DNA from: Pseudonocardia sp.
GTDB lineage: Bacteria > Actinomycetota > Actinomycetes > Mycobacteriales > Pseudonocardiaceae
Direction: 5' to 3'
NCBI GenBank assembly: GCA_035540535.1
Contig: DATLGI010000138.1
Span: forward strand, 6,924 to 70,923
Length of the DNA stretch: 64,000 nucleotides
Shown piece after piece: positions 5,049 through 61,336 of the stretch. How positions within the stretch are numbered: the stretch's first letter is position 1; each line of letters opens with the position of its first letter. Below the pieces are notes generated by a model. It had not been told where the DNA came from. It searched no databases and saw only the letters and a program-made list of their open reading frames with translations. The translations under genes were made by a program, and so were the position numbers.

Positions 5049-5075
5049 CCCGGCCCCGCCCGCGCACGTAGGCTC

Positions 5076-5786: not shown

Positions 5787-5836
5787 CCGTCGCGGGTTCG
5801 CCGCGTGGCGCTCGGACGGTTACCCTCGACGACGTC

Positions 5837-6412: not shown

Positions 6413-6423
6413 CGCGCCTTCCC

Positions 6424-7218: not shown

Positions 7219-7331
7219 CCCACCCGCGAGTCGCGGTCCACCCGTGCCGGGTCGGGCCGGAACCGTGCTCGAACCGGCGCGCGCAAGGCGCGACCCGGGC
7301 CCCCCGGCGCCCGGGGTGGCAGCATGGCGCC

Positions 7332-27195: not shown

Positions 27196-29019
27196 TCACG
27201 CGTTGATTCCGTACTGCCGGATCTTCCGGTAGAGCGATGAGCGTGCCAGGCCGAGCGCGGTGGCGGCGGCCACGCGGTTGCCGCCGGCTTCGCGCAGCGC
27301 GCTCACGATCGCGTCGCGCTCGGCCTCATCCACGGGGCGCAGCGCGCTGCGCGGCGTGCTCTGGCAGAACGCGGGCAGATCGGCCACCTCGATGCGGCCT
27401 ACGGGTCGTCGGCGCAGGGCGAACGCGAGCGCATCCCTGAGCTGGCGCACGTTGCCGGGCCACCCGTAGCGCCCCACCAGCCGCTGCGCCTCTCGGGACA
27501 GCCGCACGTCCCGGTGCGGGGCCAGCTCGGCCAGCACGGCGTCGACCAGGGCGGGCAGGTCGGAGCAGCGGCTCCGCAACGGTGGCACGGTCACCGACGT
27601 CCGGAACAACGCCAGCAGCGCGTCGTTCGCGGGGGTGGTCCGGGCGAACTCGGCGGCGGTGGCGGCGATCGACAGGGGGGCGTCCGCGCGGTTGGCGAGA
27701 GCGCCGAGAAGTCGGTCCACCGCCGTGCTGGACAGCCGATCGATATCGCGCAGCACGGGCAGCACGGGTGGCGATTGCGCCCGCAGGATCCGGGCGGCCA
27801 CGTCCCCGGGGGCTGCCTCGACCTGCTCGGCCTCGAGCGCGACGGCACGGCCCGTCTCGTGCGTGTGCCGGTAGAGGTCGGACAGAAGCGTGAACCGCCC
27901 GCTTCCGGCCTCGCCGAGGACGAGCACCGCCGCGTCGGCCCGCAGTGCCTTCGCCACGGTCGCCGCCGCGGCGCGCCACGCGGGGCAGCCGCTCTCCGCG
28001 GCCCCCACGGCCTGTGCGCGGGCCGGCCGGACCGGACGGTCGACCGCGGGCCGGAGGCGGGGGCCGGGGACGCCGTCGACCTCGTTCAGCACCGTGACCA
28101 CTCCGACCATCCCGGCGATGGCGCTGCCGACGGTCACGGTCGACCCCCGCAGCCGCACCCGGATCCCGGACGGCAGGTCGACCCGGTCGTCGACGGAGGG
28201 GTGGCGAAGCATGAGGAACCGGGCGTGGTCCTGCAAGGCCAACAGGTCGCCCGGGTCGAGCAGACCCTGCATCGGCGAGTTCGTCAGCACGGTCCGCTGT
28301 CCCACCGCCAGCACGGCCTGCCTGCTGCGCGCGTCGACACGCGTGTAGGCATCGAACAGCGCCTGCTGCAGCTGGTTGCGGTCGGTCAGCAGGTTGTTCT
28401 CGATTTGCGCCGCCGCCGAGCGGACGAGCGAGTGCAGGATCGGCGACGAGTGCTCGCTCAGGCAGCTGATGTCCAGCACACCCTCGATCCGGCCCGTGAA
28501 CGGGTCACGTACCGGAGCACCGGCACACGCATAGGGCTGCAGACTCTCGACGAAGTGCTCGGCCCCGACGATGTGCACGGACTCGCCGTACTCCAGGACC
28601 GTCCCGACGCCGTTGGTGCCGACCGATCCCTCGGCGTAGCCGAAGCCCTGCGCGAAGTACGCGGCGTCCGCGATGCGTCCCATCCACGAGCTGGCGTCCT
28701 TGCGGACGAGGAGACGGGCACGGTTGTCCGTCAGCGCCACACACGTGGGGATCTCCGCGATCTGCTCGACGAGCTGCTCGATCACCGGTCGCGCACAGCG
28801 GACGAGGCGCGAGCCGAAGTCGAGATCGGCGCAGTACTCGTTGGCCACGACGCTGGGATCGATCCCGTTGGAGATGCTGCGTCGCCAGGACGCGGCCACA
28901 TGGTCGGGCACGCCGCTCAGATCCACGTCCGGGCGCCTCAGCAACTGGGCGCGGGCGGACGCGAGCAGCAGCCGGCGATCAGCGAGGTCCCCCATGGCCC
29001 ACACCCCCCGGTGCGACAT
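27196..29019 (-). CDS. AcoR/Fis-type transcriptional regulator (GAF + degenerate AAA+ + C-terminal HTH)
   Basis: ORF 27196..29298 with the likely start at Met 29019 or 28995. It has the N-terminal VAASWRRS motif, a degenerate Walker A (GEAGSGRF), WPGNVRQL, and a Fis-type HTH (AAATALGLARSSLYRKI). Confidence 0.8.
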   Translation of the reverse strand: MSHRGVWAMGDLADRRLLLASARAQLLRRPDVDLSGVPDHVAASWRRSISNGIDPSVVANEYCADLDFGSRLVRCARPVIEQLVEQIAEIPTCVALTDNRARLLVRKDASSWMGRIADAAYFAQGFGYAEGSVGTNGVGTVLEYGESVHIVGAEHFVESLQPYACAGAPVRDPFTGRIEGVLDISCLSEHSSPILHSLVRSAAAQIENNLLTDRNQLQQALFDAYTRVDARSRQAVLAVGQRTVLTNSPMQGLLDPGDLLALQDHARFLMLRHPSVDDRVDLPSGIRVRLRGSTVTVGSAIAGMVGVVTVLNEVDGVPGPRLRPAVDRPVRPARAQAVGAAESGCPAWRAAAATVAKALRADAAVLVLGEAGSGRFTLLSDLYRHTHETGRAVALEAEQVEAAPGDVAARILRAQSPPVLPVLRDIDRLSSTAVDRLLGALANRADAPLSIAATAAEFARTTPANDALLALFRTSVTVPPLRSRCSDLPALVDAVLAELAPHRDVRLSREAQRLVGRYGWPGNVRQLRDALAFALRRRPVGRIEVADLPAFCQSTPRSALRPVDEAERDAIVSALREAGGNRVAAATALGLARSSLYRKIRQYGINA

Positions 29020-29178
29020 GCACAGATCGCGTTCTCGGTCAAGGGGCCGGGGTGTCCGACTTTGGGACGGGTCGTGCCCCACGACGTCCGCATACCGTGA
29101 CCAGTATTCCGCCTCCCGCCGACCGGCGCAGGAGACCGACGTGATCAAGAGCAATCGATGCGCACAGAAGGTAGGGCC

Positions 29179-30695
29179 ATGACGACGACTGCACCCGCAA
29201 CGGCTCCGGAACAGGGCACGGACGAGGTCCGCGACACCGAGCACGTCGACGTCCTCATCGTCGGCGCCGGGGTCTCCGGGCTCGGCGCCGCGCAACACCT
29301 GCAGAAGCGGTTCCCCGACCGGACCTTCGTCGTCCTCGAGGCCCAGGACGACCGTGGCGGCACGTGGTGGACCAACCGGTTCCCGGGTATCCGCTCCGAC
29401 AGCGACCTGTTCACCTACGGCTCCGGGACAAGCCCTGGCGTGGGCCGTCGATCGCGGCCGGGGAGGAGATCCTCAAGTACCTCGACGAGGTCATCGAGGA
29501 GAACGACCTCGCCCAGCACATCCGATACCACCACCGGGTCACCGCCGCCGCCTGGGACACCGAAGAGCGCCGGTGGACCGTGGAGGTCACCCGGGGTGAC
29601 ACCGGGGAGCGGGTGCGCTTCACCACCGACTTCCTGTGGATGTGCCAGGGCTACTACAACCACGACAAGCCCTACCAGCCGCGCTGGGAAGGCATGGACC
29701 GGTTCCAGGGCACGATCGTGCACCCACAGCAGTGGCCGCAGGACCTCGACTACGCCGGCAAGCGCGTCGTCGTGATCGGTTCCGGCTCCACCGCCTCGAC
29801 GCTGGTCCCGGCGCTCGCGCAGAAGGCGGCGCACGTCACGATGGTGCAGCGCTCGCCCTCCTACTACTTCGCCGCGCCGACCACCCACGAGCTCGCCGTG
29901 CAGCTGGAGCCGCTGGACCTCCCGCCGGAGTGGACGCACGAGATCCTGCGCCGCCAGTACCTCTCGCAGTTCCACTGGTTGGCCAGGACGTCGCTGGAAG
30001 CGCCCGACGAGCTGCACGCGTTCCTCATCGAGGGGATCCGGCCACTGCTGCCCGAGGGATTCGACATCGAGAAGCACTTCACCCCGCGGTACCGCCCGTG
30101 GCAGCAGCGCATCGCCATCGTCCCGGACGGCGACTTCTTCGCGGCCCTGCGCGAGGGGAAGGCCTCGATCGTCACCGACACGATCGAGGAGTTCACCGAG
30201 ACGGGAATCCGCGTCAGCTCCGGCGAGGAGCTCGAGGCCGACATCGTCGTCACCGCGACCGGCTTCAACCTCTCGGCGTTCGGCGACATCCCGTTCACCG
30301 TCGACGGCGAGGCGGTCGACTTCACCGAGCGGATCACCTGGCGCGGCATCATGATCACCGGGGTGCCGAACATGGCCTACGTGTTCGGCTACTTCCGGCA
30401 CAGCTGGACGCTGCGTGCGGACCTCGTCAGCGACGTGGTGATCCGACTCATGGAGAACATGCAGCTCAAGGACGCCACGATGGTCGTCCCGACGCTGCGG
30501 CCCGAGGATTCCGACATGCAGATCCGGCCGTGGTCGGACCCGGAGAACTTCAACTCCGGCTACGTCATGCGCTCACAGCACGTGTTGTTCAAGCAGGGCG
30601 ACCGCGAGCCGTGGACCCACATGCTGGAGCACGACGAGGAGCTGGAGCTCCTGCCGAAGGCCGACCTCGACGACGGGACGCTCGTCTACCGCTGA
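29179..30695 (+). pseudogene. flavin-containing (Baeyer-Villiger type) monooxygenase disrupted by a 1-nt frameshift near 29422
   Basis: The N-terminal FAD motif (VLIVGAGVSGLGAA ... GGTWWTNRFPGIRSDSDLFTYG) is in the frame of ORF 29158. The rest (RDKPWRGPSIAAGEEILKYL ... VVVIGSGSTA ...) is in the frame of ORF 29364. The total length is not a multiple of 3. Confidence 0.8.
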
Positions 30696-30732
30696 ACCCG
30701 ACCGTTCACATCCGACCATCGAGGAGATCCCC

Positions 30733-31548
30733 GTGCCCCTGACGACCGTCCGCACCGGAGTCCGGCTGAACTACGAGATCAGCGGAGAGGGGGAGCCCCT
30801 GCTGCTCGTCATGGGCACCTCCGGCTCCATGCTTCTGTGGGCCGAGCTGTTGCCCCGCCTCGCCGAGCGCTACCGGGTCATCGCCTTCGACAACCGCGGC
30901 CTCGGGGGCAGCGAGCGCGGCGAGGGCCCGATCACCGTGGCGTCCATGGCCGAGGACGCCTCCGCGCTGCTCGAAGCCCTCGACGTGCCGACGGCCCACG
31001 CCATGGGCTGGTCCCTCGGGTCGGCCGTCGTGCAGGAACTCGCCCTGGCCCATCCGCAGCAGGTCGCCTCCGCCGTCCTCTACGCGACCTGGGGCCGCTG
31101 CGACGGCTTCCAGCGCTCGGTGCTGGCCGCGCTCCGGCTGCCCTACGTCGTCCGTGACATGGAGTCGGCGCTGGCTGTGTCGGGGCTGGCGTTCTCCCCG
31201 CAGCTGCTCGACCATCCCGACTTCGCGCAGATGCTCGAACCGATGCTGCCCGCCTTCCCGCAGAACGAGGAGCAGATGGCGGTCACCGTCGAGCAGTGGG
31301 ACGCCGACCTGGCGCACGACACGCTCGATCGGCTCGGTGGGATCCAGGCCCCCACCGTGGTGGTGGTCGGCGAGCAGGACCTGCTCACGCCGCCATGGCA
31401 GGCGAAGGCCGTCGCCGACGCCGTTCCCGGAGCTCGCTACGAGCTGCTGACCGGGCCCGGGTCGAGCCACGGTCTGCACATCGAACGCCCGGACGACCTG
31501 ATGAAGATCGTCACCGGCTTTATCGACGAGCATCGAATGCACGGGTGA
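30733..31548 (+). CDS. alpha/beta hydrolase
   Basis: ORF 30733..31548 has a GWSLGS nucleophile elbow and a typical fold pattern. Confidence 0.85.
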   Translation: MPLTTVRTGVRLNYEISGEGEPLLLVMGTSGSMLLWAELLPRLAERYRVIAFDNRGLGGSERGEGPITVASMAEDASALLEALDVPTAHAMGWSLGSAVVQELALAHPQQVASAVLYATWGRCDGFQRSVLAALRLPYVVRDMESALAVSGLAFSPQLLDHPDFAQMLEPMLPAFPQNEEQMAVTVEQWDADLAHDTLDRLGGIQAPTVVVVGEQDLLTPPWQAKAVADAVPGARYELLTGPGSSHGLHIERPDDLMKIVTGFIDEHRMHG

Positions 31549-35754: not shown

Positions 35755-36501
35755 GTGCGGTTGGGTGCCTCCCTCGCCCACCTGTCCCCCGCCCCGCCCT
35801 ACCCGGTGGCCGAGTGGGCGCGCCGCCTGGCGGGGGCGGGTTTCGAGAGCCTGTGGGTACCCCAGATCATCGGCCGCGGCTTCCTGGTCCCGGACGTGTT
35901 CGTGACGCTGGCGGCGGCGGCCACGGCCACCGAGGGCGTGGAGGTGGGGACGGCCACCGTGCAGGTCCCGATGCACCATCCCGCCGACCTCGCCCACCGG
36001 GTCCTGTCGCTCATGTCGGTGTGCGGGGACCGCCTGACCCTCGGCGTCAGCCCCGGGTCGACCGAAGCCGACTTCGCCACCCTCGACCGCGACCACGCCG
36101 CGCGCTTCCGGACCTTCAAGGAGAACCTGCCGCGGCTGCGGGGCCTGCTCGCCCACGGGCGCGACGACCGCGCCGATCTCGCCCCCGCCCCGGTGGCCAC
36201 GCCGCCGCTCCTGCTCGGCTCGTGGGGCGCCAACGTCGAGAAGGCCGCCCGCGAGTTCGACGGCTGGCTGGCCTCCGCCTACCGGCGCACCCCGGACCAG
36301 ATTCTCGCCGCCCACGAGCGGTACCGGGCCGCCGGCGGCCGACGGGCGATCGCGTGCTACATCCAGCTGTCCGGGAGCGACGACCTCGGACCCACCGGCG
36401 AGCTGCTCCAGCGGTATGCGGCGGCCGGCTTCGACGACGCCGTCGTGCTGATCGAACCAGGAGGGCCGGATCCCGAACAGGTCAGAGCCCTCCTCCCATG
36501 A
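35755..36501 (+). CDS. LLM class flavin/F420-dependent oxidoreductase (short form)
   Basis: ORF 35755..36501 shows a luciferase-like pattern (ESLWVPQ, GVSPGS). Confidence 0.7.
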   Translation: MRLGASLAHLSPAPPYPVAEWARRLAGAGFESLWVPQIIGRGFLVPDVFVTLAAAATATEGVEVGTATVQVPMHHPADLAHRVLSLMSVCGDRLTLGVSPGSTEADFATLDRDHAARFRTFKENLPRLRGLLAHGRDDRADLAPAPVATPPLLLGSWGANVEKAAREFDGWLASAYRRTPDQILAAHERYRAAGGRRAIACYIQLSGSDDLGPTGELLQRYAAAGFDDAVVLIEPGGPDPEQVRALLP

Positions 36502-36789
36502 GCGACGGGCGGATCCTGCTGACGGTGATCTCGCCGAGGCGCAGCTCGCCGAGTCACGGTGGTCGGTTGACTGCTCCGGTGCTGGTCAGAGCCGCTCGAG
36601 GTCGCGCCGTGGAACGGTGAGCCGCAGCATGCCGGCAACCCGGACGGGCCGGTCAGCCGCTTGGCACTTCGGGCGCGAAGGTGCCGGGCAGCCTGCGCCG
36701 GGGCTCGGCCAGCGTGAACCGTACGGGAACTGTCGGTGCTCGTCCCTACGCTGTGCTGGCGAGCCCGACCTGGCGCTGAAGGGTTGCTG

Positions 36790-38217
36790 GTGGACTTCGA
36801 GGCGATCGAGACACTGCGGGAGAGGCATCCCGCGTGGCGGCTCCTGCGCGCACAGAACGCCTCGCTGACCCTCTCGTTCCTGGGCAGCCACTTCGTGGAG
36901 GCCAACCACGGAGCGACGGAGGCGGCGAGCCTGGTCGAGGCGCTCGATGAGCACCTCTACGTGCTCAACGCGAATGCTGACGAGCCCCGGTATCCGCGCC
37001 CACCACAGGAGTACCTCGACGCCTGGTCGGCCCCCGAGTCCGGCTGGCTGCGCCGCTTCTATCCCGCGAGCGGCGACGAGATCCACTACGACGCGACGCC
37101 GGCGTTCGAGAAGGCTTACGCGTGGGTCTCCGGGCTGCGCAGCCGCTCGTTCGTCGGCACGGAGTCCCGGCTGCACACGGTGGTCGATCTCCTCCGGCAG
37201 ATCGTGCACGGCACCGAGAGTGATCCAGAGTCGCGCCTGGAGCTGCTCCGCAGGCAGCGGGCCGAGCTCGACAGGCAGATCGAGGACGCCGAACGGGGCG
37301 AGGTCGCCGTGCTGAGTGACACCGCGGTACGCGACCGCTACCAGCAGTTCGCCGCAACGGCGCGCGAGCTGCTGTCGGACTTCCGCGAGGTGGAGGAGAA
37401 TTTCCGGGGGCTCGATCGAGCGGCGCGCGAGCGGATCGCCGCGTGGGACGGCGCCAAGGGCGAACTACTGACCGCGCTGGTGTCGAGTCGCGCCGACATC
37501 AACAGCTCCGACCAGGGCAGTAGCTTCCAGGCGTTCTACGACTTCCTGCTCTCCGAGAGCCGGCAGGACGAGCTCGCACTGCTCCTCGCCAGGGTGCAGG
37601 AGCTGGCGCCGATCGATGCGGACCAGCGGCTGCGCACCATCCACCACGACTGGTCCGATGCCGCCGAGCGCACCCAGCGGACGGTTCGTCAGATCTCGGA
37701 GCAGCTGCGCCGGTTTCTCGACGACCAGGTCTGGCTGGAGAACCGGCGGGTGCTGGAGCTGGTCCGCTCGATCGAATCCACCGCGCTCGAGTGCCGGGAG
37801 AATCCGCCCGATCTCGGACTCGCGGTCGAGGTTCCCGGCGTCCAGATCGCACTGCCCTTCGAGCGACCGCTCTACGATGCCCGTCCGGCAGCGCGTGTCG
37901 AGAGCATGCTCGATCCCGTCGACGAGGAGGAGATCGATGTCTCGGCGCTGTTCAGCCAGACGTTCGTCGACCAGGGCCGACTGGCGGAGAACGTACGGTC
38001 GCTGCTGCCCAGACGCAGCAGCGCGCTGCTGGACGACATCATCGCCCTGTACCCGGTCGAGCGCGGTGTGGCGGAGATCATCGGCTACCTGTCCCTGACC
38101 GAGGAGGACCTCACCGTCACTCTCGACGAGACCGAGGAGACGGTTCTCGACTACCTCGACGTCGAGGGCCGACCCCGCCGGGCGAGAATGCCGAAGGTGA
38201 CGGTGAGCCGCCGATGA
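36790..38217 (+). CDS. jetA: Wadjet JetA (DUF3375, MksF/EptA kleisin-like subunit)
   Basis: Lies in the frame of ORF 36736..38217. The likely start is GTG 36790. It has an N-terminal ETLRERHPAWRLLRAQNASLTLSFL motif, is about 475 aa, and is first in the four-gene coupled operon. Confidence 0.75.
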   Translation: MDFEAIETLRERHPAWRLLRAQNASLTLSFLGSHFVEANHGATEAASLVEALDEHLYVLNANADEPRYPRPPQEYLDAWSAPESGWLRRFYPASGDEIHYDATPAFEKAYAWVSGLRSRSFVGTESRLHTVVDLLRQIVHGTESDPESRLELLRRQRAELDRQIEDAERGEVAVLSDTAVRDRYQQFAATARELLSDFREVEENFRGLDRAARERIAAWDGAKGELLTALVSSRADINSSDQGSSFQAFYDFLLSESRQDELALLLARVQELAPIDADQRLRTIHHDWSDAAERTQRTVRQISEQLRRFLDDQVWLENRRVLELVRSIESTALECRENPPDLGLAVEVPGVQIALPFERPLYDARPAARVESMLDPVDEEEIDVSALFSQTFVDQGRLAENVRSLLPRRSSALLDDIIALYPVERGVAEIIGYLSLTEEDLTVTLDETEETVLDYLDVEGRPRRARMPKVTVSRR

Positions 38218-38807
38218 GGACCCCGGAGGAGCACGCCGTCGCGAGCGCGATCATCGACCTGATGCGCGGCGTCGTCTACCGCGAGTCGCGGGAGGACGCC
38301 TGGAACACCGTGAACCGCCACGGCGCCGCTGTTCGGGATCACTTCGGCACCATCGGCGTCGATGTCGTCATCGACGACGCGGAGGGATACGCCTACCTGC
38401 GCAGCCAGGAGGAGAGCGAAGCTGCCGAGCCCCTGCCGCGGCTGGTCAGGCGGCGCAGCCTCACCTACCACGTCAGCCTCCTGCTCGTGCTGTTGCGCAA
38501 GCGACTCGTGGAGTTCGAGACCACCGGCAGCGAGGGCAAGCTCGTGCTGAGCCGGGACCAGATCGTCGAGATGCTGCGCGTGTTCCTGGCCGACTCCACG
38601 AACGAGGCCCGGGTGATCGATCGGGTCGACACCACTCTCAAGCAGGTGGCCGAGCTCGGCTTCCTCCGGCAGCTGCGTCGACAGCAGGATCAGTGGGAGG
38701 TACGGCGAATCCTGAAGGCGTACGTCGACGCGCAGCTGCTCGCGGACTACGCCGGCAAGCTCCGGGAGTACGCCGACGCCGTCCGCGGGGGGACGACCGA
38801 TGGGTGA
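38214..38807 (+). CDS. jetB: Wadjet JetB (DUF4194, MksE/EptB-like subunit)
   Basis: ATG at 38214 overlaps the jetA stop (ATGA). It is 197 aa and acidic. Position and size match JetB. Confidence 0.7.
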
Positions 38808-41800
38808 GGCACTCTTCTCCGCCGCCGAGCCGGCTGCAGCGGGCCGGGCGGGATTTCGGCTGCGGCATCTCGAGGTGTTCAACTGGGGCACCTTCGACAA
38901 GCGGGTTTGGCGGCTGACACCCGGCGGCGACACCTCGCTGCTCACCGGCGACATAGGCAGCGGCAAGTCCACCCTGGTCGACGCCGTCACCACGCTGCTC
39001 CTGCCCGCGCACAAGATCGCGTACAACAAGGCCGCCGGAGCGGAGTCCAAGGAACGCACGCTTCGCAGCTACGTCGAAGGGCACTACAAGGCGGAGCGGA
39101 TCGAGAGCACCGGCGCCTCCAAGGCCATCGGCCTGCGCGACCACCGGTCGTACTCGGTCGTCCTCGGGGTGTTCGTCAACGACGGGTACGACGAGACCGT
39201 CAGCCTCGTGCAGGTCTTCCACCAGAAGGACCGCGCCGGCCAGCCCGACCGCTTCTTCGTGATCTCCACCAAGCAGCTGAGCATCGAGGCCGACTTCACC
39301 GACTTCGGGTCCGACCTCAACGAGCTGCGCCGGCGGCTGCGGTCGGCGGGCGCGACCATCAGCCCGGGGTTCCCGGAGTACTCCCGCCAGCTGCGTCGGC
39401 TGCTGGGGATCCGCTCGGAGCAGGCGCTGGACCTGTTCCACCAGACCGTGTCGATGAAGTCGGTCGGCAACCTCAACGAGTTCGTCCGCAGCCACATGCT
39501 GGAACCGGTGGACGCCACGGAACGGGTCGGCGCGATCGTCGGGCACTTCGAGGACCTCACCAAGGCGCACGAGGCGGTTCGCCGTGCCCGCGAGCAGCTC
39601 GCGGCGCTCGAGCCGCTGGTCGCCACCGCGCAGCGGTACGACGAGGCACGCACCCGCCGCTCGGCTGCGGAGCGCCAGCGCGACGCCGTTCGCCTCTATT
39701 TCGGCGAGCTGCGGATCCGGCTCCTCGCCGCCGAGGTCTCCACCAACCAGGCCGCCCGCACTGTGCACGAGCGCGAGGAGACCGACGCCGACGCGGCCCT
39801 CGTGCGGCTCACCGCCGAGCGGGACGGCCTCATCGCCGAGCGAGCGGCGGCGGGTGGCGACCGTCTCGGCGAGCTCGAACGCGTGGAGGCCGAGGCCGCG
39901 CGGGACGCGAACACCCGGCGGGAGCGTCGCGGGCGATTCGCCGCCGCGGTCACCGCAGCCGGGCTCGACCCGGTCGCGGACGCGGCGGGATTCACGAGCC
40001 TCGCCCGACGGATCGCCGGGATGCGCGAGTCATCGCAGGCCGAGCGCGCGGTGGTCGACTTACGGTCGACCGGGATCGCGACCCGGCGCAACGAGGTGGA
40101 CCGCCAGGGCGCCGAGCTCCGTGCCGAGCTGGAGAGCCTGGCGGGGCGGCGCAACAACCTTCCCCGCAGCCACCTCGACGTCCGCGCCCAGCTCTGCGCC
40201 GACCTCGGTCTCGACCCCGACGTGCTGCCGTACGCCGGCGAGCTCATCGACGTCGCCGAGGAGCACGCGCAGTGGCGGGGCGCGGCCGAGCGCGTCCTGC
40301 GGGGGTTCGCCCTGTCCCTGCTGGTCCCGCAGGAGCACTACCCCGCGGTATCCCGCTGGGTCAACGAGCACCGCCTCACCTACCGGAGGGACGGCGGGGA
40401 CCGGCGCGGGATGCGCCTGGTCTACGAGCGGGTGCCGCGCCGGCAGGTCAGGCTGCAGCCGCCGGTCGGACCCGGTGGGCTGGTGCTGGCCGAGACACTG
40501 GAGATCGTAGAGGGCCCGTTCGCCGGGTACCTGCGCGACCAGCTCGCCCGCCGGGCCGACCACGCCTGCACGGAGACGCTCGCCGCCTTCCAGATGGCGG
40601 CCCGGGCGGTCACCCGCGAGGGTCAGGTCCGGGCCGGCGACCGGCACGAGAAGGACGACCGCAGCCGGATCGACGACCCGCGGACCTGGGTCCTCGGCTG
40701 GGCCAACGAGCAGAAGATCGCAGCGCTGACCGGGCAGCTCACGGACCTCCAGGCCGAGGTCCTGACGCTCCAGCAGGAGGCGGACTCCGCGGCGGCCGCG
40801 CGCAGCCGCCTGCAGGACCGCCTGGACGCGCTGGCCACGCTGGAGGCCTACCCCGATTGGTTCGACCTCGACTGGGAGCAGGCGCGAGCGCGGGCGCAGG
40901 AGGCGCGCGAGGAGCGGGAGCGGCTGCTTGCCGGGTCCTCGCGGCTGGCCGAGATCGGCCGGCGGCTCGCGGCGAACGAGGCGCATGCCAAGGCGCAGCG
41001 CGTGCGTTTGCGAGAGCTACGGTCGCTGATCTCGGTGCTCGACGACCGGGTCGCGCGGTCCACGCGGTCACGAGACGAGGAGGCAGCGCACCGCGACGCC
41101 CATCCCCCGGAGGTGCTGGCGGCCGCCCGGGAGGCATACGACGAGCTCACCGCTCGCCTCGGCCCGCGGGTGCCGAACGAACCTGACGCCTGCCTGCCCG
41201 CCGCGGCCGCGCTGACCGCCGACATCCAGCGTGGGATCGAGCGGAACGACAAGGAGATCGGCGGCTACGTGCAGAGCTTGCTGGGCTACATGAACGAGGT
41301 ACGCCGCCGCTGGCCGGAGGCGACCACCGAGATGGACGCCCACCTCGACTCGCTGCCGGAGTTCCGCTCGTTCCGGGACCGGGTCGCCAACGACGACCTG
41401 CCGGCGTTCGAGGAGGAGTTCAAGCGTCAGCTCAACACCAACACCATCCGGGAGCTGGCCGGCTTCGCCAGCTGGCTGCGCCGCGAGGCCGAGGACATCC
41501 AGCTGCGGGTGGACCGGATCAACGAGGCGCTCGGAGCCATCGACTACAGCGCCGGCCGCTACATCACGCTGGTCGCCGAGCGCACCGTCAACCAGGAGGT
41601 CCAGGCCTTCCGCGCTGACCTGCGGGCAGCCACCGACGACACGCTCGGCCCGGACGACGACCGCTACTCCGAGCAGAGGTTCCTCGACGTCGCCCGGATC
41701 ATCGAGCGGTTCCGCGGCCGGCCGGGCCACGCGGACGCGGACAAGGCGTGGACCCGGCGGGTGACCGACGTGCGGAACTGGTTCACCTTCTCCGCCTCCG

Positions 41801-42204
41801 AGCGCCACCGTGACACCGACGAGGAGTGGGAGCACTACCGCGACTCCGACGGCAAGTCCGGCGGCCAGAAGGAGAAGCTCGCCTACACCATCCTGGCGGC
41901 CTCCTTGGCCTATCAGTTCGGCCTGGAGTGGGGCGTCGAGCGGTCACGGGACTTCCGGTTCGCTGTGATCGACGAGGCGTTCGGGCGTGGATCGGACGTG
42001 TCGACACGTTATGCCCTCGAACTGTTCGCCAAGCTCGGCCTACAACTGCTGATCGTCACGCCGCTGCAGAAGGTGCACGTGATCGAGTCCTACGTCCGAG
42101 CGATCGGTTTCGTCGACAACCCCACGGGGAGCTACTCGCGGCTCCAGTCGCTGACCATCGAGGAGTTCCACGCCCGTCGGGCCGGCATGGCCCCCGACGG
42201 ATGA
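38800..42204 (+). CDS. jetC: Wadjet JetC (SMC-like ATPase, MksB/EptC)
   Basis: ORF 38800..42204 has Walker [10 protein letters not shown], a long Arg/Glu/Ala/Leu-rich central region, the ABC signature [11 protein letters not shown] and Walker [14 protein letters not shown]. Confidence 0.9.
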
Positions 42205-43352
42205 CCTGCGCCTGGACGACGTCGACGGAGCTGGCGCGGAGGGTCCGCCGACGCTGGGACGACGGGACGCTGCTCTCCGCTCTGGCCGCCGGCGACCCCT
42301 TCCCGGGGCTGGATCTTCCCGTCCGCGGCCCCCATCCGTCGGAGATCGGCGATGACTTGGCCGCGGTGCAGCGCTGGGTCGCCGAGCTGGAGGCGGGCAG
42401 CCGCAACGGCCGGAGCTACGAGCTCGTCCACGCCACCATCGGTGGGCGGCACTTCGGGCGCAACCGGATCCCGGCCCGCGCCCGCGTCACAACCTATGAG
42501 CAGGCATGGCAACTGTTGGGCGTCGCCGCCCATGTGGCCGCGTACCGGCGAATTCTGGATCTGAGTGCATCGGTTCCTGCGGTTCGTTCCTGGGCAGCCG
42601 CCTGCCCGCTACGAGCGCTCGACGTCGCGGACGAGTGGGAGCCGCTCGTCGCCGCCTACTCCTGGTTGGACGCGGCCCGCGGCTCTGGCCGCTACTTGCG
42701 CGAGATCACCGCCCCGGGGGTGGACACGAAGTTCGTCGAGCGGCACCGGTCGGTGCTGAGCCACCTGCTCGGCACCGACCGCTCCGCCAGGGGGTTCCTT
42801 TCCGCGCTGGGACTGCGAGTGAAGCCGGAGACGGTGCGGCTGCGGTTCGATCCCGCCGTATTGGGCATGCCGGCCGCCCTCACCGAGGCGGAGCTGCGGG
42901 TCGAGGAGCTGGCCGCGCTCCCGGCCGCCGTCCGCACGGCAGCGATCATCGAGAATGAGACTACGTACCTCACGGTCCCGGTCCCAAGCAGTGGTGTGGT
43001 CATGTGGGGGAAGGGCTTCGAGGTGAGCCGGGCCGGTGCGTTGCCCTGGCTCCGCGATGCCGACGTGTACTACTGGGGTGACCTCGACACCCACGGTTTC
43101 GCGATCCTCGACCGGCTGCGCGCCTGGCTGCCCTGCTCCGAATCGTTCCTGATGGACCGGGGGACGCTGCTGGCCCACCGCGACCGCTGGGTCCGCGAGG
43201 GATCACCGACGTCGGCAAGCCTCGACCGGCTCAACCCGGACGAGGCCGCCCTGTACCGCGACCTCGTCGCCGACCAACTCGGTGACGGCGTCCGCCTGGA
43301 GCAGGAGCGCATCGACTGGGCGTGGGCGAGTAAACGCATTCCCTACGAATGA
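42201..43352 (+). CDS. jetD: Wadjet JetD (DUF3322 + Toprim-like DUF2220 nuclease subunit, MksG/EptD)
   Basis: ATG at 42201 overlaps the jetC stop (ATGA). It has C-terminal Toprim-like IIENETTYL ... [16 protein letters not shown]. Confidence 0.85.
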
Positions 43353-43560
43353 TCGGTCAACGCGACATCTGCCCGCGCAAGGGCCTGCCGGGCGGCGGTG
43401 CGGGTGCGGCCGTGCTTCTCGATTGCGCCGCGACGGAGTGCGCCGGTCGGCGCGGTGAAAGCGCAGGTTGCGGTCGCGCCAGTACAGCGTCCAGGACCGC
43501 CGGGTGTGGTCGGCCTCGAGCGGGCGCCCGTCGAGCCGCGCGCGCCGGGTCGGTGCCTAC
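43343..43560 (-). mobile_element. possible 3' remnant of an IS110-family transposase (frameshifted)
   Basis: The minus-strand translation ...LYWRDRNLRF / TAPTGALRRGAIEKHGRTRTAARQALARADVAL weakly resembles the ...YY.RR.AEGKTKREAIRCLKRY... C-terminus of IS110 transposases. It is broken across two frames. Confidence 0.25.
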
Positions 43561-43874
43561 CTGCGCGGGCTACTCGCGGGGTTGGAGCGCAAGACTGACG
43601 CTGACACCCCCACATGACGTGGACACACGCCGTGCGCCGCCGCGAGCGGGCGTTCCTGCAGGTCACTCCCTTGATTCAAGGTTCGACGCCTGCCCACGAT
43701 CTGCGGAACCCGGGGACACGGACGCTGCTCACCGGGCGATCCGTACTCGCGCCAGCCACCCGTCCGGCGCCCGTGGTCCCCACCGCTCCAGCCATAACGA
43801 CCATGATTGTCTTTTTCATCTATAGCCGCTAGCGTCGTCCGGGACCCGTCACCGTCGAGAAGGATGGTCCCGCC

Positions 43875-44630
43875 GTGCACGCACCGAAGCTGGAAGGCCG
43901 CAACGCGATCGTCACCGGAGGGTCGCGCGGCATCGGCCGCGGCATCGCCCTGCTGCTCGCCGAGCACGGCGCGAACATCGCGTTCAACCACTACCGCGAC
44001 GGCGAGAAGGCCGCGCAGACCCTCGGCGAGATCGAGGCGCTGGGCCGCAAGGCCTACCAGGCCGAGTGCGACGTCTCCTCGGTGCCCGGGGTGCGGCAGT
44101 TCTACGCCGACGCCAAGGCCGCGCTCGGTGCGATCGACGTCCTGGTCAACAACGCCGGCCACAACGTCACGTCGAAGTTCGAGGACATCACCGAGGAGGA
44201 TTTCGACCGGATGCACGGGGTGCACGTCAAGGGCACCTTCTTCATGACCCAGGCCGCGTACCCGGACATGCTCACGCGCGGCGAGGGCCGGATCATCAAC
44301 ATCACCTCCCAGCTCGCCTACAAGGGCGCCGGGCTGCTGACCCACTACGCGTCGGCCAAGGGCGCGAACATGACGTTCACCCGCTCGCTGGCGCTGGAGT
44401 GCGGCGGAACCGGCGTGCTGGTCAACGCGGTCGCGCCGGGCGTCACGAACACCGACCTGCTTACCCCGCTCGCGCAGGAGCTGCTGGACAACCTGAGAGC
44501 GACCATTCCGCTGGGCCGTTTCGCCGAGGTCGACGAGATCGCCCCGGCCGCGCTACTGCTCGCCGCCCCCGAGGGCAGCTTCTTCCACGGCACCTGCATC
44601 TCACCCAACGGCGGCGAGGTCATGCTGTGA
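43875..44630 (+). CDS. SDR family oxidoreductase (FabG-like)
   Basis: ORF 43875..44630 (GTG start) has TGGSRGIGRG, NNAG and YASAK motifs. Confidence 0.85.
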   Translation: MHAPKLEGRNAIVTGGSRGIGRGIALLLAEHGANIAFNHYRDGEKAAQTLGEIEALGRKAYQAECDVSSVPGVRQFYADAKAALGAIDVLVNNAGHNVTSKFEDITEEDFDRMHGVHVKGTFFMTQAAYPDMLTRGEGRIINITSQLAYKGAGLLTHYASAKGANMTFTRSLALECGGTGVLVNAVAPGVTNTDLLTPLAQELLDNLRATIPLGRFAEVDEIAPAALLLAAPEGSFFHGTCISPNGGEVML

Positions 44631-45760: not shown

Positions 45761-46066
45761 TCACCAGCTGGACTTGCGGACTCCGGGAAGGCACCCCGCG
45801 TGGGCCAGCTCGCGCAGCCGGATGCGCGAGACCCCGAACGCGCGCAGGTACCCGCGGGGCCGGCCGTCAACGGCGTCCCGGTTGCGCAACCGGGTCGCGC
45901 TGGCGTCGCGAGGCTGGCGGCGCAGCTCGCGGGCGGCGGCGGCGCGCTCCTCGGTGGGGGTGGCCGGGGAGGAGATGAGCCGCTTGAGCTGTGCGCGGCG
46001 CTGCGCGTGGCGTGCGACCACAGCCCGGCGCTGCCGCTCGCGGGCGATCTTGCTCTTCGTGGCCAT
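45761..46066 (-). CDS. rpsN: 30S ribosomal protein S14, long Cys-less (zinc-independent) form
   Basis: Internal Met of ORF 45761..46291. It begins [14 protein letters not shown], ends LPGVRKSSW, is 101 aa, and has no CxxC pairs. Confidence 0.9.
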
Positions 46067-46302
46067 CAGATCCGCTCCCCCCGTGCGCGGACGCGCGCGA
46101 CGGCGGCCTCGACCCCCAGCCTGTCCACGGTCTTGATCCCCTTGGCCGAGAGCTGCAGGCGCACGTAGCGGTTCTCGGCGGCGAGCCAGTACCGCCTCGT
46201 CTGGACGTTCGGATCCCAGCGGCGGGGGGTGCGGCGCTGCGAGTGCGAGACCCGCTTGCCGAAGCCCGGCTCGCGGCCGGTGAGCTGGCAACGTCGCGAC
46301 AC
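46066..46302 (-). CDS. rpmB: 50S ribosomal protein L28 paralog (single Cys, no CxxC pairs)
   Basis: Lies in the frame of ORF 46066..46311 with a GTG start. It reads [34 protein letters not shown]. Confidence 0.85.
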
Positions 46303-46307
46303 CGTCC

Positions 46308-46550
46308 TCACCCCCGCCCGGCGTGCGGGTAGGGCAGCAGGGCCATCTCTCGGGCGTTGCGGATCGCGGTGGCGACCTGACGCTGCTGGCGGGGCCTGAG
46401 CCCGGTGACCCGGCGAGCGCGGATCTTGCCGCGATCGGAGACGAACGTGCGCAGCAGCCCGATGTCCTTCCAGTCCACGGCCTCGATGCCCTTGACGTCG
46501 AGCGGGTTGACCCGACGCCGCAGCGGGGCCTTGCGAGCGCGCTGCGGCAT
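46308..46550 (-). CDS. rpsR: 30S ribosomal protein S18 paralog (Cys-less)
   Basis: C-terminal part of ORF 46308..46748. It has [20 protein letters not shown]. Confidence 0.88.
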
Positions 46551-46717
46551 CACCGCTCCTCGCGGAACTTGACGTGTCGGCGCACGACCTTGTCGTACTT
46601 GCGCAGCACCAGCCGGTCCGGATCGTTGCGGCGGTTCTTGCGCGTGACGTAGGTGACGCCGGTGCCTGCGGTCGACCGCAGCTTGACGATCGGCCGGAGC
46701 TCGGTACTGCGGGCCAC
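46550..46717 (-). CDS. rpmG: 50S ribosomal protein L33 paralog (Cys-less)
   Basis: GTG start within ORF 46550..46744. It reads [35 protein letters not shown]. Confidence 0.88.
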
Positions 46718-46733
46718 TCGCCTCACCCCTCTC

Positions 46734-46752
46734 AATAATGACAATCATTACC
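46734..46752. promoter_or_regulatory. Fur-family (Zur-type) box AATAATGACAATCATTACC
   Basis: This AT-rich 6-3-6 palindrome (TAATGA-CAA-TCATTA) matches 16 of 19 positions of the classical GATAATGATAATCATTATC Fur box. It lies in the 76-bp divergent region between the alternative ribosomal protein operon and the COG0523 gene. Confidence 0.7.
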
Positions 46753-46793
46753 GTCTAGAGTGACGGTAGCAGGAGACGAGGGAGGGACGAGCG

Positions 46794-48032
46794 ATGGGTG
46801 GACGAGCCGAGCTGATCATGCTGGCCGGCGGGACCACGCCCGCGGCAGCCGAGGGCGCCGAGCGGGTGATCGACCGGATCCGCGCCGAGGAGCCCCGCAC
46901 GGTGGTGCTGCACCACGACCTGCGCGACGCCGGCCGCGGCCTCGTGCGCCGACGGATGCGGCTCGGCAACGCGGACCAGGTCACCGTGCTCGAGCTCGCG
47001 CACGGCTGCGTGTCGTGCACGCTGCGCGAGGACGTGCTGCCGCTACTGCGCGAGCTCGGGCGCCGCAGACACGTCGAACGGATCGTTCTGCACCTTGATC
47101 CCGTCCTCGAACCCGAGCAGGTGTGCTGGACGGTTCGGCACGTGCTCGTCAACGGCGCACCGGTCACCGACGCGGTCGAGCTGCGCGGGGTGATCACCAT
47201 CCTGGACGCCGAAGCCTGGCTCGCCGACGTCGCCGGCGCCGACGATGTCGCCGACCGCGACCTGGCCGTCCTGCCCGACGACGACCGCACCCTCGCGCAG
47301 CTGGTGGTCGCCCAGGCCGAGTTCGCCGACCTGCTCGTGCACACCGGCGCCGCCGAGCCCTGGCAGGCCGCGCGTACCGAGGCCGTGCTCGCCCGGCTGG
47401 CGCCGTGCGCGGTCCGGCTGCCACTCGACCGGCTCGACCGGCGAGTGCTGCTCGAGCGGCTCCCGGCCGGCGCTCGCCGAGGTGTCACCGACGACCTGCA
47501 CGCAGCGCTGCTGCACGGCCAGCCCCCGCTGCACGCCGACGCCGGCGTGCAGCTGGTGACGTTCAACGCACGCCGCCCGTTCCATCCCGAGCGGTTGCAC
47601 GCCGCGGTCGACGTGCTCCTCGACGGGGTGATCCGAACCCGCGGCCGGATCTGGCTCGCCACCCGGCCCGACGCAGTGCTCTGGCTGGAGTCCGCGGGCG
47701 GTGGCCTGCGGCTCGGGCACGCAGGAGGCTGGCTCGCGGCCGACCCCGAGGCCTGGGAACACGCCGACCCCGAGCGCCGAGCCGCCGCCGCACTGCGCTG
47801 GCACGACCGCTGGGGCGACCGCGCCCAGGAGCTCACCATCCTCGTCCACGACGCGGACCCCGCCGTCGTCGACGCCGGGCTGCGCGAGGCGCTGCTCACC
47901 GACCGCGAGCTGGCCGCCGGTGAGAGCGCCTGGCGTCACTACCCGGATCCCTTCGGCTGGTGGCACACCGACCCCTGCGACGACATCACACCCCAACCGG
48001 TGACCGGACGACACCAGGAGGACCAGGCGTGA
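46794..48032 (+). CDS. CobW/COG0523-family protein with degenerate P-loop
   Basis: ORF 46794..48032 shows the COG0523 pattern ([20 protein letters not shown], a C-terminal CobW_C-like region), but the N-terminus reads [15 protein letters not shown] instead of GxxGxGK[ST]. Confidence 0.75.
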
Positions 48033-48277
48033 AACCCGGCATCCACCCCGACTACCACCCCGTCGTGTTCCAGGACAGCTCGACCGGCGACGCGTTCCTC
48101 ACCCGCTCCACCGCGACCTCGTCACGGACCATCGAGTGGGCCGACGGCAACACCTACCCGCTGATCTTCGTCGACGTCAGCGCCGCCTCCCACCCGTTCT
48201 GGACCGGGAAGCAGCGCGTCCTCGACGGCGCCGGCCAGGTCGAGAAGTTTCGCCGCCGTTACGGGAGCCGGGGCTGA
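48029..48277 (+). CDS. rpmE2: 50S ribosomal protein L31 type B (Cys-less)
   Basis: GTG at 48029 overlaps the COG0523 stop. It has [15 protein letters not shown] ... HPFWTGKQR. Confidence 0.9.
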
Positions 48278-48447
48278 TGGCGGTCCCGAAGCGGCGCACC
48301 TCGCGCAGCAACACCCGCCACCGACGCGCCCGGTGGAAGGCGCAGTCGCCGGACCTGGTGCCGGTGGCCCTCGACGGCCGGCGCCACCTGGTGCCGCGTC
48401 GGCTGGTCCGCGCCCACCAGCGCGGCCTGCTGCCACCGCCGGACTGA
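48277..48447 (+). CDS. rpmF: 50S ribosomal protein L32 paralog (Cys-less)
   Basis: ATG at 48277 in the frame of ORF 48136..48447. It begins [18 protein letters not shown]. Confidence 0.88.
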
Positions 48448-48459
48448 CCGCGCCGCGCC

Positions 48460-50099
48460 TCAGCGCCATGCCGCGGCGCGCAGCAGCCGCAGCCCGTTGA
48501 GCGCGACGAGGATCGTGGAGCCCTCGTGGCAGGCCACCCCGACGGGCAGCGGCAGGGTCCCGGCGAGGTCCCACGTCACGAGCACGGCGATCGCGGTGCC
48601 GGCGAGGACGAGGTTCTGCACGACCAGCCGGCGAGCGCGGCGGGACAGCGCGACCGCGGCGGGAACGGCGGCGAGCTCGTCGCGTACCAGCACCGCGTCG
48701 GCGGTCTGCAACACCAGGTCGGAACCGACGCCGCCCATGGCGACGCCGAGCTCGGCGGTGGCCAGCGCCGGCGCATCGTTCACGCCGTCACCGACCATCA
48801 GCACGTGCTCGCCCGACGCCTGCAGCTCCGCGACCACCTCCGCCTTGTCCTGCGGAAGCAACCCGGCGCGCCGACGACCGCACGCACCCGGCGGCCCGGT
48901 TCGGCGCGGAACTCCTCGGACCGCGCGGCCGCGACCCCGTGCTCGCGCGCGTGGGAGACGACCGCGCGCGCCAGCGGGTGCTCGCTCGGCGCCTCCGCGG
49001 CCGCGGCGAGCGCGAGCACTGCATCCGCGTCCCAGCCCGGCAGCGGGCGGACCGCGACCAGCCGCGGCGTGCCCTCGGTCAGCGTTCCGGTCTTGTCGAG
49101 GACCGCGACGGTGGCGGTGCCGAGCCGTTCCATGACCACCGAGGACTTGACGAGCACCCGGTGCCGGCCCGCGGTGGCGATCGCCGCGAGCAGCGGCGGC
49201 ATCGTCGCCAGCACCAGCGCACACGGCGAGGCGACGATCATGAAGGTCATCGCGCGCAGCAGCGTCTCCCGCAGCGCCGCGCCGAACAGGAGCGGCACGG
49301 TGAACAGGGCGAGCGTCCCGACCACCACGCCGACCGAGTAGCGCTGTTCGACCCGCTCGATGAACAGCTGGGTCGGCGCCTTGGTGGCACTCGCGCGCTC
49401 GACCATCGCGGCGATCCGCGCGACGACGCTGTCGGCCGCGGCCCGGCCGACCCGCACCAGCACCGAGCCGGTGCCGTTCACGGTGCCGGCGTACACCTCA
49501 TCGCCCGGGGTCACAGGCACCGGAAGCGGCTCGCCGGTGACCCCGGCCTGGTCGACCTCGCTGCGCCCGTCGACGACCTCGCCGTCCGCGCCGATCAGCT
49601 CGCCGGGGCGTACCAGGATCACGTCACCGATGGCGAGATCCGCGACCGCGACGGTGTCCTCCTCCCCGTCGGTGCGGATCCGGTTCGCCTGCTCCGGAGC
49701 GAGTTCGAGCAGGCTGTGCACGGAGTCCGCGGTCCGCCGCGTCGCCAGCGCCTCCAGCGCGCCCGACGTCGCGAAGATGACGATGAGCAGCGCACCCTCG
49801 AACACCTGGCCGATCGCCGCGGCGCCGAGTGCCGCGACCACCATCAGCAGGTCCACGTCCAGCGTGCGCTCCCGGAGCGCGCGCAGGCCCGCCAGCCCGG
49901 GCGCCCAGCCGCCGGCCAGGTAGCAGGCGCCGTAGTACGCGCCCGTCACCGTCGCGGGCGCGCCGGCGAGGTCGAGCAGCGCGGCGACCGCGAACAGGAC
50001 GGTGGCTGCGGCGGCCCAGCGAACCTCGGGCAACACCCAGGCGGCGGTGCGGCGCCGGGGGAGCGCGGCGTGTCGCCGTGGCACGGTCGAGGTGGTCAC
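48460..50099 (-). pseudogene. P1B-4-type heavy-metal (Co/Ni/Zn) P-type ATPase with an internal out-of-frame deletion
   Basis: The gene is split between ORF 48798..50342 (TGE, the SPC TM motif, DKTGTLT) and ORF 48460..49224 ([25 protein letters not shown]). The frames join near 48862-48875. The TGD region is absent. The 1640-nt span is not a multiple of 3. Confidence 0.75.
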
Positions 50100-50118
50100 G
50101 GCGGTGGACGATACCTGC

Positions 50119-50138
50119 ACGCGCAGATAGCTGCGTGT
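50119..50138. promoter_or_regulatory. imperfect 20-bp palindrome ACGCGCAGATAGCTGCGTGT (candidate ArsR/SmtB operator)
   Basis: 16 of 20 positions are self-complementary. It lies between the divergent ATPase and ArsR genes. Confidence 0.35.
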
Positions 50139-60571: not shown

Positions 60572-60865
60572 ATGCAGCTGGCCAAGGTGCTCGGCCAGGT
60601 CGTCTCGACGGTCAAGGAACCCGGCCTGGACCGGTTCACGCTGCTCCTGGTGCAGGAGGCCTCCGGGGCTGACCCCGAGCGGACGAGCGGTGCCGCATAC
60701 GTCGCGGTCGACCTCGTCGGCGCCGGCGTCGGTGAGGTGGTTCTCGTCGCCACGGGCGGCGCGGCCCGGGTCGCGGCCGGCGCCGACGCCCCGACCGACC
60801 GAGCCGTCGTCGCCATCGCCGACACGGTGGTGCGGTCCGGCTCGGTCGCCTACCGCAAGTCATGA
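60572..60865 (+). CDS. bacterial microcompartment vertex protein (EutN/CcmL family, BMV)
   Basis: ORF 60572..60865 reads [15 protein letters not shown] ... [23 protein letters not shown] ... [11 protein letters not shown]. Confidence 0.9.
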
Positions 60866-61251
60866 CCACCGCAGCGGCTCTGCCCACTCATTCCGCCGTC
60901 GGACGAGACCACCTGGAGGACGACATGGCTCCCACCACAGCAGGCGCGAACGGGGGGACCACCATGCGCGGTGCCCTCGGCCTGATCGAGACGAAGGGCC
61001 TCGTCGGGGCCATCGAGGCCGCGGACGCGATGGTGAAGGCGGCCAACGTGCAGGTCGTCGGGCACCGTGAGATCGGTGGCGGCCTCGTGACGGTGATGGT
61101 GCGAGGCGACGTCGGGGCCGTCAAGGCCGCGACCGACGCCGGCGCGGTGGCCGCGGGCAAGGCCGGCGAGGTCGTGTCGGTACACGTCATCCCGCGCCCG
61201 CACGACGAGACCGAGGGCATCCTCGCCGTCCTCACCCGCCCGAAGGGCTGA
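60862..61251 (+). CDS. BMC-H shell protein (PduA/EutM/CcmK-type BMC domain) with N-terminal extension
   Basis: ORF 60862..61251 overlaps the BMV stop (ATGA). It has [30 protein letters not shown] ... [19 protein letters not shown] ... SVHVIPRPH. Confidence 0.92.
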
Positions 61252-61336
61252 ACCGATACCGCCCCGTCCGGGACGGCGTCGCGGCGCCGACCTCCGGGCG
61301 GGCACCCGGCCACCGGAGTCCGAACCGAGGTGAGGA

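Follow-up and report, generated by a model that had tools for sequence, protein, structure and literature searches.

Evidence for a complete type I Wadjet operon on the chromosome of an uncultured Pseudonocardia

The Pseudonocardia sp. assembly GCA_035540535.1 contains, on contig DATLGI010000138.1, a stretch of 64,000 nucleotides (positions 6,924 to 70,923) which we call the window. We are confident that positions 36790-43352 of this window carry a complete, apparently functional and chromosomal type I Wadjet system, with the genes jetA-jetB-jetC-jetD (equivalent to mksFEBG and to eptABCD), in a Pseudonocardia species which is known only from a metagenome-assembled genome (MAG). The Wadjet identity follows from the fact that the four encoded proteins match the defining Pfam families, fit the type I models of PADLOC from end to end and match solved Wadjet subunits. 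Our observations concern the gene content and gene order, the open frames, the conserved overlaps, the family membership, the conservation of catalytic residues and the predicted folds. A first-pass annotation, made from the letters of the sequence, had already proposed a type I Wadjet, and the best PADLOC model is indeed of type 1 for each subunit (JetA1, JetB1, JetC1 and JetD1; E 9e-101 to 0). With profile E-values between 1e-44 and 0 a chance match is ruled out.

The four open reading frames are co-directional on the plus strand, encode 475, 197, 1134 and 383 amino acids and contain no internal stop codon. The gene jetA (36790-38217, GTG start) shares the ATGA at 38214-38217 with jetB (38214-38807), an overlap of 4 nt. 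The end of jetB overlaps jetC (38800-42204) by the 8 nt ATGGGTGA at 38800-38807, and jetC is joined to jetD (42201-43352) by a second 4-nt ATGA overlap at 42201-42204. Layout, sizes and overlaps are exactly those given in the first-pass annotation. The overlaps of 4, 8 and 4 nt are likewise kept in two homologous cassettes, L083 and L084. Such conserved overlaps would fit translational coupling and fixed subunit ratios, by analogy with studied operons, but they are not proof of either.

On public contigs with the identical sequence independent gene calls also yield proteins of 475, 197, 1134 and 383 amino acids, the sole deviation being a JGI call in which jetA starts with TTG at position 36784 and encodes 477 amino acids. 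Another in-frame start, GTG at 36736, would give a still longer JetA. We disfavour this start on account of the profile alignments, which set in at residue 1 of the 475-residue protein, and of a Shine-Dalgarno-like motif, GAAGGG, which lies 6 nt 5′ of the GTG at 36790. The GC content at third codon positions (GC3) of the four jet genes is 0.87-0.93, which is high, as for coding sequence; the GC content of the window is about 72%.

The product of the first gene is a kleisin of the MksF/EptA type. It matches the Pfam family DUF3375 (PF11855) with E 2.4e-139, residues 9-471 being aligned to positions 2-473 of the 474-position profile, and PADLOC JetA1 with E 3.2e-192 over residues 1-474. Similarity to the solved JetA chains 8q72_E, 8as8_E and 8dk1_A is also significant (E about 1e-20), and an identical protein is deposited in NCBI as HVL84860.1. 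The assignment to DUF3375, which the earlier reading had drawn from the opening residues, is thus confirmed. Equally well founded was its assignment of the second gene, made from the protein size, to the DUF4194 family. JetB, a KITE subunit of the MksE/EptB type, matches DUF4194 (PF13835; E 2.4e-44), MksE (PF21980; E 1.2e-19) and PADLOC JetB1 (E 9e-101), and consists of a single domain with no tandem arrangement. Solved JetB chains are found with E 1e-7, the alignment starting from about residue 55 of these 250-residue proteins. The short N-terminus of JetB is conserved in both homologous cassettes. PADLOC has dedicated short-JetB type I models, which match our protein end to end; the short form is therefore already catalogued. 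The identical NCBI entry is HVL84861.1.

JetC is the SMC/MukB-like ATPase of the system (MksB/EptC type; SMC, structural maintenance of chromosomes). The Pfam domains AAA_29 (E 1.6e-23, residues 21-81) and SbcC_Walker_B (E 3.3e-24, residues 987-1077) mark the two ends of the protein, PADLOC JetC1 covers residues 13-1129 with E 0, and full-length alignments are obtained to the solved JetC chains of Pseudomonas aeruginosa (8dk2_C, E 7e-57) and Escherichia coli (8as8_A, E 2e-50). The earlier description of an SMC/Rad50-like protein is borne out, and the motifs quoted there are in place: the Walker A motif GDIGSGKST occupies residues 50-58 (38947-38973), the ABC signature starts at residue 1020 and the Walker B stretch at residue 1054. 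Among 30 homologues of 63-87% identity the whole Walker A motif from G50 to T58 including K56, as well as Q142, the signature S1020-G-G-Q1023 and D1058-E1059 of the Walker B motif FAVIDE (signature to Walker B, 41857-41976) are invariant, and H1093 is conserved in at least 90%. In Corynebacterium glutamicum MksB the Walker B mutant E1042Q is ATPase-dead (PMC10123090). The family is very large, with 7,687 relatives at E ≤ 1e-30 among the scored candidates, and a 72,291-bp ENA contig of a Pseudonocardia sp. MAG encodes a protein with 100% identity to JetC.

Between the two head halves of JetC lie two stretches, residues ~250-480 and 645-790, which are rich in A, E, R, L, Q and K, poor in proline and glycine and show heptad periodicity. 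They are separated by a Pro/Gly-rich middle part at about residues 505-590. The AlphaFold2 model (mean predicted local distance difference test score, pLDDT, of 72) agrees with this partition. Its ascending arm (~240-470; 39517-40209) consists of helices 240-349, 358-386, 395-447 and 456-469, most of it with a pLDDT from the mid-80s to the low 90s, and the helix breaks with 65-80. A mixed alpha/beta hinge follows at ~480-625 (40237-40674); its pLDDT is mostly 71-93, drops to 55 in one block and falls to about 50 at residues 617-625. The descending arm (~633-912; 40696-41535) is built from helices 633-683, 693-709, 715-766, 770-790, 795-837 and 849-912; its pLDDT is mostly 84-93 and 64-81 near residues 700-720. 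As structural matches of the model we find first the JetC proteins of E. coli, Neobacillus vireti and P. aeruginosa, then MukB and then Smc5/6, condensin and SMC hinge fragments; for the hinge, Foldseek returns the SMC hinge-plus-coiled-coil structures 4rsj and 4rsi. In the model JetC is SMC-like: a hinge stands between two long helical arms, which by homology would pair in antiparallel orientation. The structure prediction which had been proposed for this protein thus brings out a long coiled coil with a hinge, and the objection that a coiled coil might be lacking falls away.

The last gene encodes a nuclease of the MksG/EptD type, which had been recognised before as Toprim-like. JetD combines DUF3322 (PF11795; E 2.6e-46; CAP-like, nt 42225-42770) with the Toprim domain JetD_C (PF09983; E 1.9e-51; nt 42810-43337), and it matches PADLOC JetD1 with E 4e-122. 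With these matches, the profile searches proposed for the four proteins were positive in every case. Among solved chains the best sequence match is C. glutamicum MksG (8b7f, E 8e-27), followed by 7til and 8q72_M. The AlphaFold2 model of JetD has a pLDDT of 91, and Foldseek again ranks MksG 8b7f first (E 3e-24; template modelling score, TM, 0.72/0.75), then JetD of P. aeruginosa PA14, Topo VI-A and Spo11. The quoted motif IIENETTYL is found at residue 249 and the DxD stretch at residue 291. All of 27 homologues share E251, N252, E253, F273, D294, D296, E367 and E369; the putative metal ligands E251 (within IIENE) and D294/D296, with F273 in between, are encoded by nt 42945-43097. In the alignment E251 falls on the position exchanged in the E. 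coli JetD(E248A) chain and on E236 of MksG, D294 on MksG D279, and E367/E369 on MksG E349/E351 (MksG residues from PMC10123090). The E248A exchange abolishes cleavage by the E. coli system (10.1101/2022.10.04.510915), and MksG E236A and D279A are impaired as nucleases (PMC10123090). The identical protein in NCBI, HVL84863.1, is named Wadjet JetD domain-containing protein.

We also considered related classes. For a type II Wadjet we find a JetC2 match of only 1.5e-7, as against E 9e-101 to 0 for the type I models, and JetB is a single short KITE protein, not a tandem one. Type III is rejected likewise, as the PADLOC JetD3 model reaches only 4e-5 against the same type I values. A Lamassu system is indicated only by an LmuB match of E 2.6e-5 which is confined to the N-terminal P-loop region (residues 20-163), and a kleisin and a KITE gene are present. 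MukBEF and MksBEF are systems of three genes without a nuclease; here the 3′ end of jetC is followed, with an overlap, by a jetD gene whose Toprim site is intact. None of the four proteins has a matching model in NCBIfam, a library which seems to hold no model for these families, so that this is not evidence against membership.

The last of these classes deserves more attention, since JetABC is homologous to MukBEF. The operon could encode a condensin of the MukBEF/MksBEF type which organises the chromosome, with JetD as an accessory or inactive partner. JetB does match the Pfam family MksE, the JetC model does match MukB, and a separate MksB condensin, which has a role at the chromosome, exists in mycobacteria (PMC11329512). 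Against this, the gene with DUF3322 and JetD_C overlaps jetC and its Toprim ligands are invariant, and this gene is the very feature by which Wadjet differs from MksBEF. PADLOC ranks the type I Wadjet models highest (E 9e-101 to 0), and the actinobacterial four-gene versions, C. glutamicum MksBEFG and Mycobacterium smegmatis EptABCD, act on plasmids (PMC10123090, PMC7083940, PMC10586767). We therefore regard a condensin as highly improbable, even more so in view of the distribution of the operon discussed below, and retain the type I Wadjet assignment. The system is a textbook, ordinary type I Wadjet, and identical proteins are already present in NCBI.

How might such a system work in Pseudonocardia? 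The systems of E. coli, P. aeruginosa, Bacillus and C. glutamicum are our basis for loop extrusion, for a selectivity that depends on the shape and size of the DNA, for its cleavage, for translational coupling and for the anti-plasmid phenotype. Type I Wadjet cuts circular DNA and spares linear DNA; the reaction is independent of sequence and needs ATP, the SMC ATPase and JetD, and in vivo the upper limit on size is about 50-100 kb (10.1101/2022.10.04.510915). According to the current model a circle is sensed by loop extrusion to completion followed by collision of the motors (PMC10889018, 10.1101/2023.11.03.565488, PMC10586767). By analogy we suggest the following steps. JetC would form SMC-like dimers in which a hinge and long antiparallel coiled-coil arms are combined with ATPase heads. 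JetA, the kleisin, would close the ring and join two motor units to a dimer of dimers, and the KITE subunit JetB would bind to JetA. JetABC would then load on DNA and extrude loops with ATP. On a small circle the motors would collide once the whole circle has been extruded, and this state could recruit or activate the Toprim nuclease JetD, which would cut the DNA. Linear DNA and the large chromosome would escape cleavage.

Several points weigh against a straightforward transfer of this scheme. The anti-plasmid function of the operon, as of any Pseudonocardia Wadjet, would be a function by analogy. Both head halves of the JetC model are poorly modelled (pLDDT below 50), so the geometry of the JetC head is taken solely from sequence homology. 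The N-terminus of JetB is about 50 residues shorter than in the structurally studied JetB proteins (197 against 249-250 residues), and a search for an IFDR-like motif ([ILVM]F[DE][RK]) in JetA, JetB, JetC and JetD found none. In the E. coli and PA14 proteins the IFDR motif of the N-terminal JetB extension contacts the CAP domain of JetD and thus tethers the nuclease (PMC10586767; 10.1101/2025.03.10.642339); recruitment of JetD may therefore differ from E. coli and PA14. The JetD position which corresponds to Tyr258 of MksG is Phe273. A role as nucleophile has been proposed for Tyr258, which other actinobacterial homologues are said to share (PMC10123090). Finally, a promoter scan came back blank, so that expression of the operon is presumed.

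As regards JetB and JetD, we note that the long JetB with its IFDR-bearing extension, characteristic of the E. coli GF4-3/PA14 subgroup, is replaced here by the short form, and that the Toprim tyrosine Y258 typical of the MksG-like nuclease is replaced by F273. Both are subgroup features and do not define Wadjet; membership is therefore unaffected. The glutamates which align with E367/E369, that is, E349/E351 of MksG, were put forward as alternative nucleophiles (PMC10123090). It is conceivable, if rather unlikely, that the actinobacterial clade couples its SMC sensor to the nuclease in a way unlike every studied Wadjet, with another docking interface for JetD and a purely hydrolytic cleavage through E367/E369. 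If this were true, the clade would be natural evidence against a tyrosine mechanism of the Topo VI/Spo11 kind in Wadjet nucleases.

The promoter scan covered positions 36300-44000 and found neither a sigma-70-like promoter nor a terminator; its consensus is of the E. coli type, fits actinobacterial promoters poorly and says little at a GC content of about 72%. The 288 bp upstream of jetA (36502-36789, plus strand) have no coding signal in any frame and would presumably serve as promoter or leader. Downstream of jetD lies an intergenic region of 522 bp (43353-43874), in which no gene is called on the public contigs and which contains a possible gene remnant and an AT-richer stretch next to the following gene, which encodes a short-chain dehydrogenase/reductase (SDR). 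Both lengths agree with the first-pass annotation, which had given 288 bp and about 520 bp.

With a blank scan, a possible remnant directly downstream and, in the vicinity, a P-type ATPase gene which appears split and may point to some local decay or assembly noise, one could argue that the operon is intact in sequence yet silent or non-functional in its host, an unexpressed passenger on its way to decay. The scan carries little weight here for the reason just given. The four frames are open, the catalytic residues are conserved, the third-position GC is that of coding sequence (0.87-0.93), and the overlaps are preserved as in the homologues. A decaying passenger is accordingly very unlikely, and an apparently functional Wadjet is the reading which we prefer.

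The possible remnant lies at the right edge of the operon, at 43400-43560 on the minus strand. A frame with a GC3 of about 1.0, interrupted by a stop codon, resembles DUF3024 there below the threshold (E 5e-4; 20.7 bits, the cut-off being 24.9); it may be what is left of a gene. Two open reading frames in the downstream gap (107 amino acids on the minus strand and 158 on the plus strand) have no Pfam hits.

The operon sits among metabolic genes, as had been noticed before. Upstream are an AMP-binding, acetoacetyl-CoA-synthetase-like gene (AcsA) and two genes of luciferase-like monooxygenases (LLM1 and LLM2); downstream follow the SDR gene and then a methyltransferase gene. Among the window genes scanned we found no integrase or transposase, the remaining ones belonging to ordinary chromosomal metabolism. 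A scan of the whole window revealed neither a tRNA nor an Rfam RNA, and a search for direct and inverted repeats flanking the operon gave just short, chance-like matches of low identity.

We then compared 80 loci from representative species, with the upstream AMP-binding gene (66-90% identical) as the anchor; they come from Pseudonocardia, Amycolatopsis, Nakamurella, Gordonia, Rhodococcus and others. The block LLM1-AcsA-LLM2 is conserved in these loci, and a Wadjet is present at this site in none of the 80. This is not expected for a core chromosome-maintenance system and thus argues further against the condensin mentioned above. The downstream genes of the window are also absent from all 80 loci, so that none of them represents an empty site. 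When metagenomes were scanned with the downstream SDR, the relatives found were at most 75% identical and stood in unrelated contexts; a clean insertion is therefore neither shown nor excluded. The nearest JetC homologues, with 87% and 73% identity, belong to four-gene cassettes of the same make-up, overlaps included, and have unrelated neighbours. The tetranucleotide correlation of the operon with the window is the lowest of any 6.5-kb stretch (0.967; mean 0.987, standard deviation 0.007), the region at 27-35 kb being nearly as low, and the GC3 of jetA and jetD falls within the lowest 5-9% of the window genes.

Since the operon is absent from 80 related loci, since its homologues have unrelated neighbourhoods and since its composition is mildly atypical, the cassette is accessory and was probably acquired horizontally. 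The first-pass annotation had concluded from the long gaps on both sides that an accessory module had been inserted. The accessory character stands on the three grounds just named, whereas the gaps have to be dropped as an argument, as the length of an intergenic gap alone is no evidence of insertion, and neither an empty site nor an integrase, a tRNA or repeats accompany the operon. In a plasmid database JetC has matches below 50% identity, and the 15 listed are all on records of 0.5-2.7 Mb (megaplasmids, chromids and chromosome-sized records), mostly from Ralstonia. This search gave no sign that the window is plasmid-borne.

The setting of the 73%-identical cassette is of a different kind. 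In L084 (positions 4983-7624; Mycobacteriales MAG, GCA_040902655.1) its direct neighbours are a PIN/PhdYeFM toxin-antitoxin pair, a Macro-domain gene and a restriction-endonuclease-like PDDEXK gene; this setting is defence-island-like, as opposed to the metabolic one in the window. The SDR gene (43875-44630) may be a recent acquisition itself. Its closest metagenomic relatives are 69-75% identical, some of them on contigs named after marine surveys (e.g., a TARA scaffold), and an orthologue of more than 37% identity is absent from the 80 related actinobacterial loci.

Four other regions of the window are worth recording. At 45761-48447 there are divergent extra paralogues of ribosomal proteins, with S14, L28, S18 and L33 on the minus strand and a CobW-type GTPase, L31 and L32 on the plus strand. 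CxxC pairs are missing from the copies of S14 and L28, as in zinc-independent paralogues, and the layout is that of the usual actinobacterial zinc-starvation (Zur) regulon. The L33 and CobW genes diverge from a 76-bp region, in which the 6-3-6 palindrome TAATGA-CAA-TCATTA (46736-46750) looks like a candidate operator of the Zur-box type, judged from its sequence and position. Next, at ~48460-50120 on the minus strand (L081, 19661-21321), the P-type (E1-E2) ATPase gene is called on the public contig as two overlapping pieces of 125 and 440 amino acids, adjoined by an ArsR/HTH_20 regulator; the split may reflect a frameshift, a pseudogene or an error of assembly. At 27196-31548 a MimR-type regulator (GAF, AAA lid and Fis helix-turn-helix; MimR_N in the public annotation) is divergent from a flavin/Baeyer-Villiger-type monooxygenase and an alpha/beta hydrolase. 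This layout resembles ketone/acetone oxidation clusters, and the region has the atypical tetranucleotide signature in common with the operon. Finally, a bacterial microcompartment (BMC) locus at 60572-64000 runs off the end of the window, with an EutN/CcmL vertex protein, a BMC-domain shell protein, an aldehyde dehydrogenase and an actin-like (MreB/FtsA-fold) protein.

Beyond correct annotation the significance of the operon is slight. The host is an uncultured Pseudonocardia, from a genus relevant to natural products and symbiosis. With an intact Wadjet, genetic work that uses small circular plasmids should be harder, and linear or very large replicons should escape. Of comparative interest is that a large actinobacterial clade keeps all metal-binding and glutamate residues of JetD and is without the MksG tyrosine and the IFDR tether of JetB. 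This pattern of residues can guide mutagenesis on the recruitment of JetD and on cutting.

The operon can be compared with several known systems, among them the other Wadjet types. Type II, as in N. vireti (9qe0), and type III follow the same logic of an SMC sensor and a Toprim nuclease, and 9qe0 is a structural match of our JetC model. Type II differs by its tandem KITE, its longer coiled coil and its hinge without a channel (10.1101/2025.03.10.642339), where we find the single short KITE protein JetB. Systems of type I are JetABCD of E. coli GF4-3 (8as8, 8bfn, 8q72, 9qx*) and P. aeruginosa PA14 (8dk1-3, 7til). They have the same gene order, JetC is homologous over its full length (E 2e-50 and 7e-57), JetA, JetB and JetD are homologous too, and the catalytic E248 of E. 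coli JetD corresponds to E251. The JetB proteins of these two systems, of 249-250 residues, carry an N-terminal extension and the IFDR motif, both of which are missing from the 197-residue protein described here, and the sequence match to their JetD is confined to the C-terminal half (residues 160-372).

Two actinobacterial systems complete the comparison. M. smegmatis EptABCD is also a four-gene operon of the Wadjet type, which we liken to ours solely by its published description (PMC10586767; PMC10123090 Fig. 1). In strain mc2155 the loss of eptC, and with it of EptABCD function, explains the efficient transformation with plasmids (PMC10586767). MksBEFG of C. glutamicum (mksFEBG, cg3106-cg3103) lowers plasmid copy number, and its subunit MksG is a nuclease (PMC7083940, PMC10123090). 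JetD shares only about 26% identity with MksG and differs from it by Phe273, invariant in 27 homologues of the clade, in place of Tyr258. Nevertheless MksG is the best match of JetD both by sequence (E 8e-27) and by structure (TM 0.72-0.75), its residues E236, D279 and E349/E351 are kept as E251, D294 and E367/E369, and the C. glutamicum genes form a chromosomal actinobacterial four-gene operon in the same order as in the Pseudonocardia operon.

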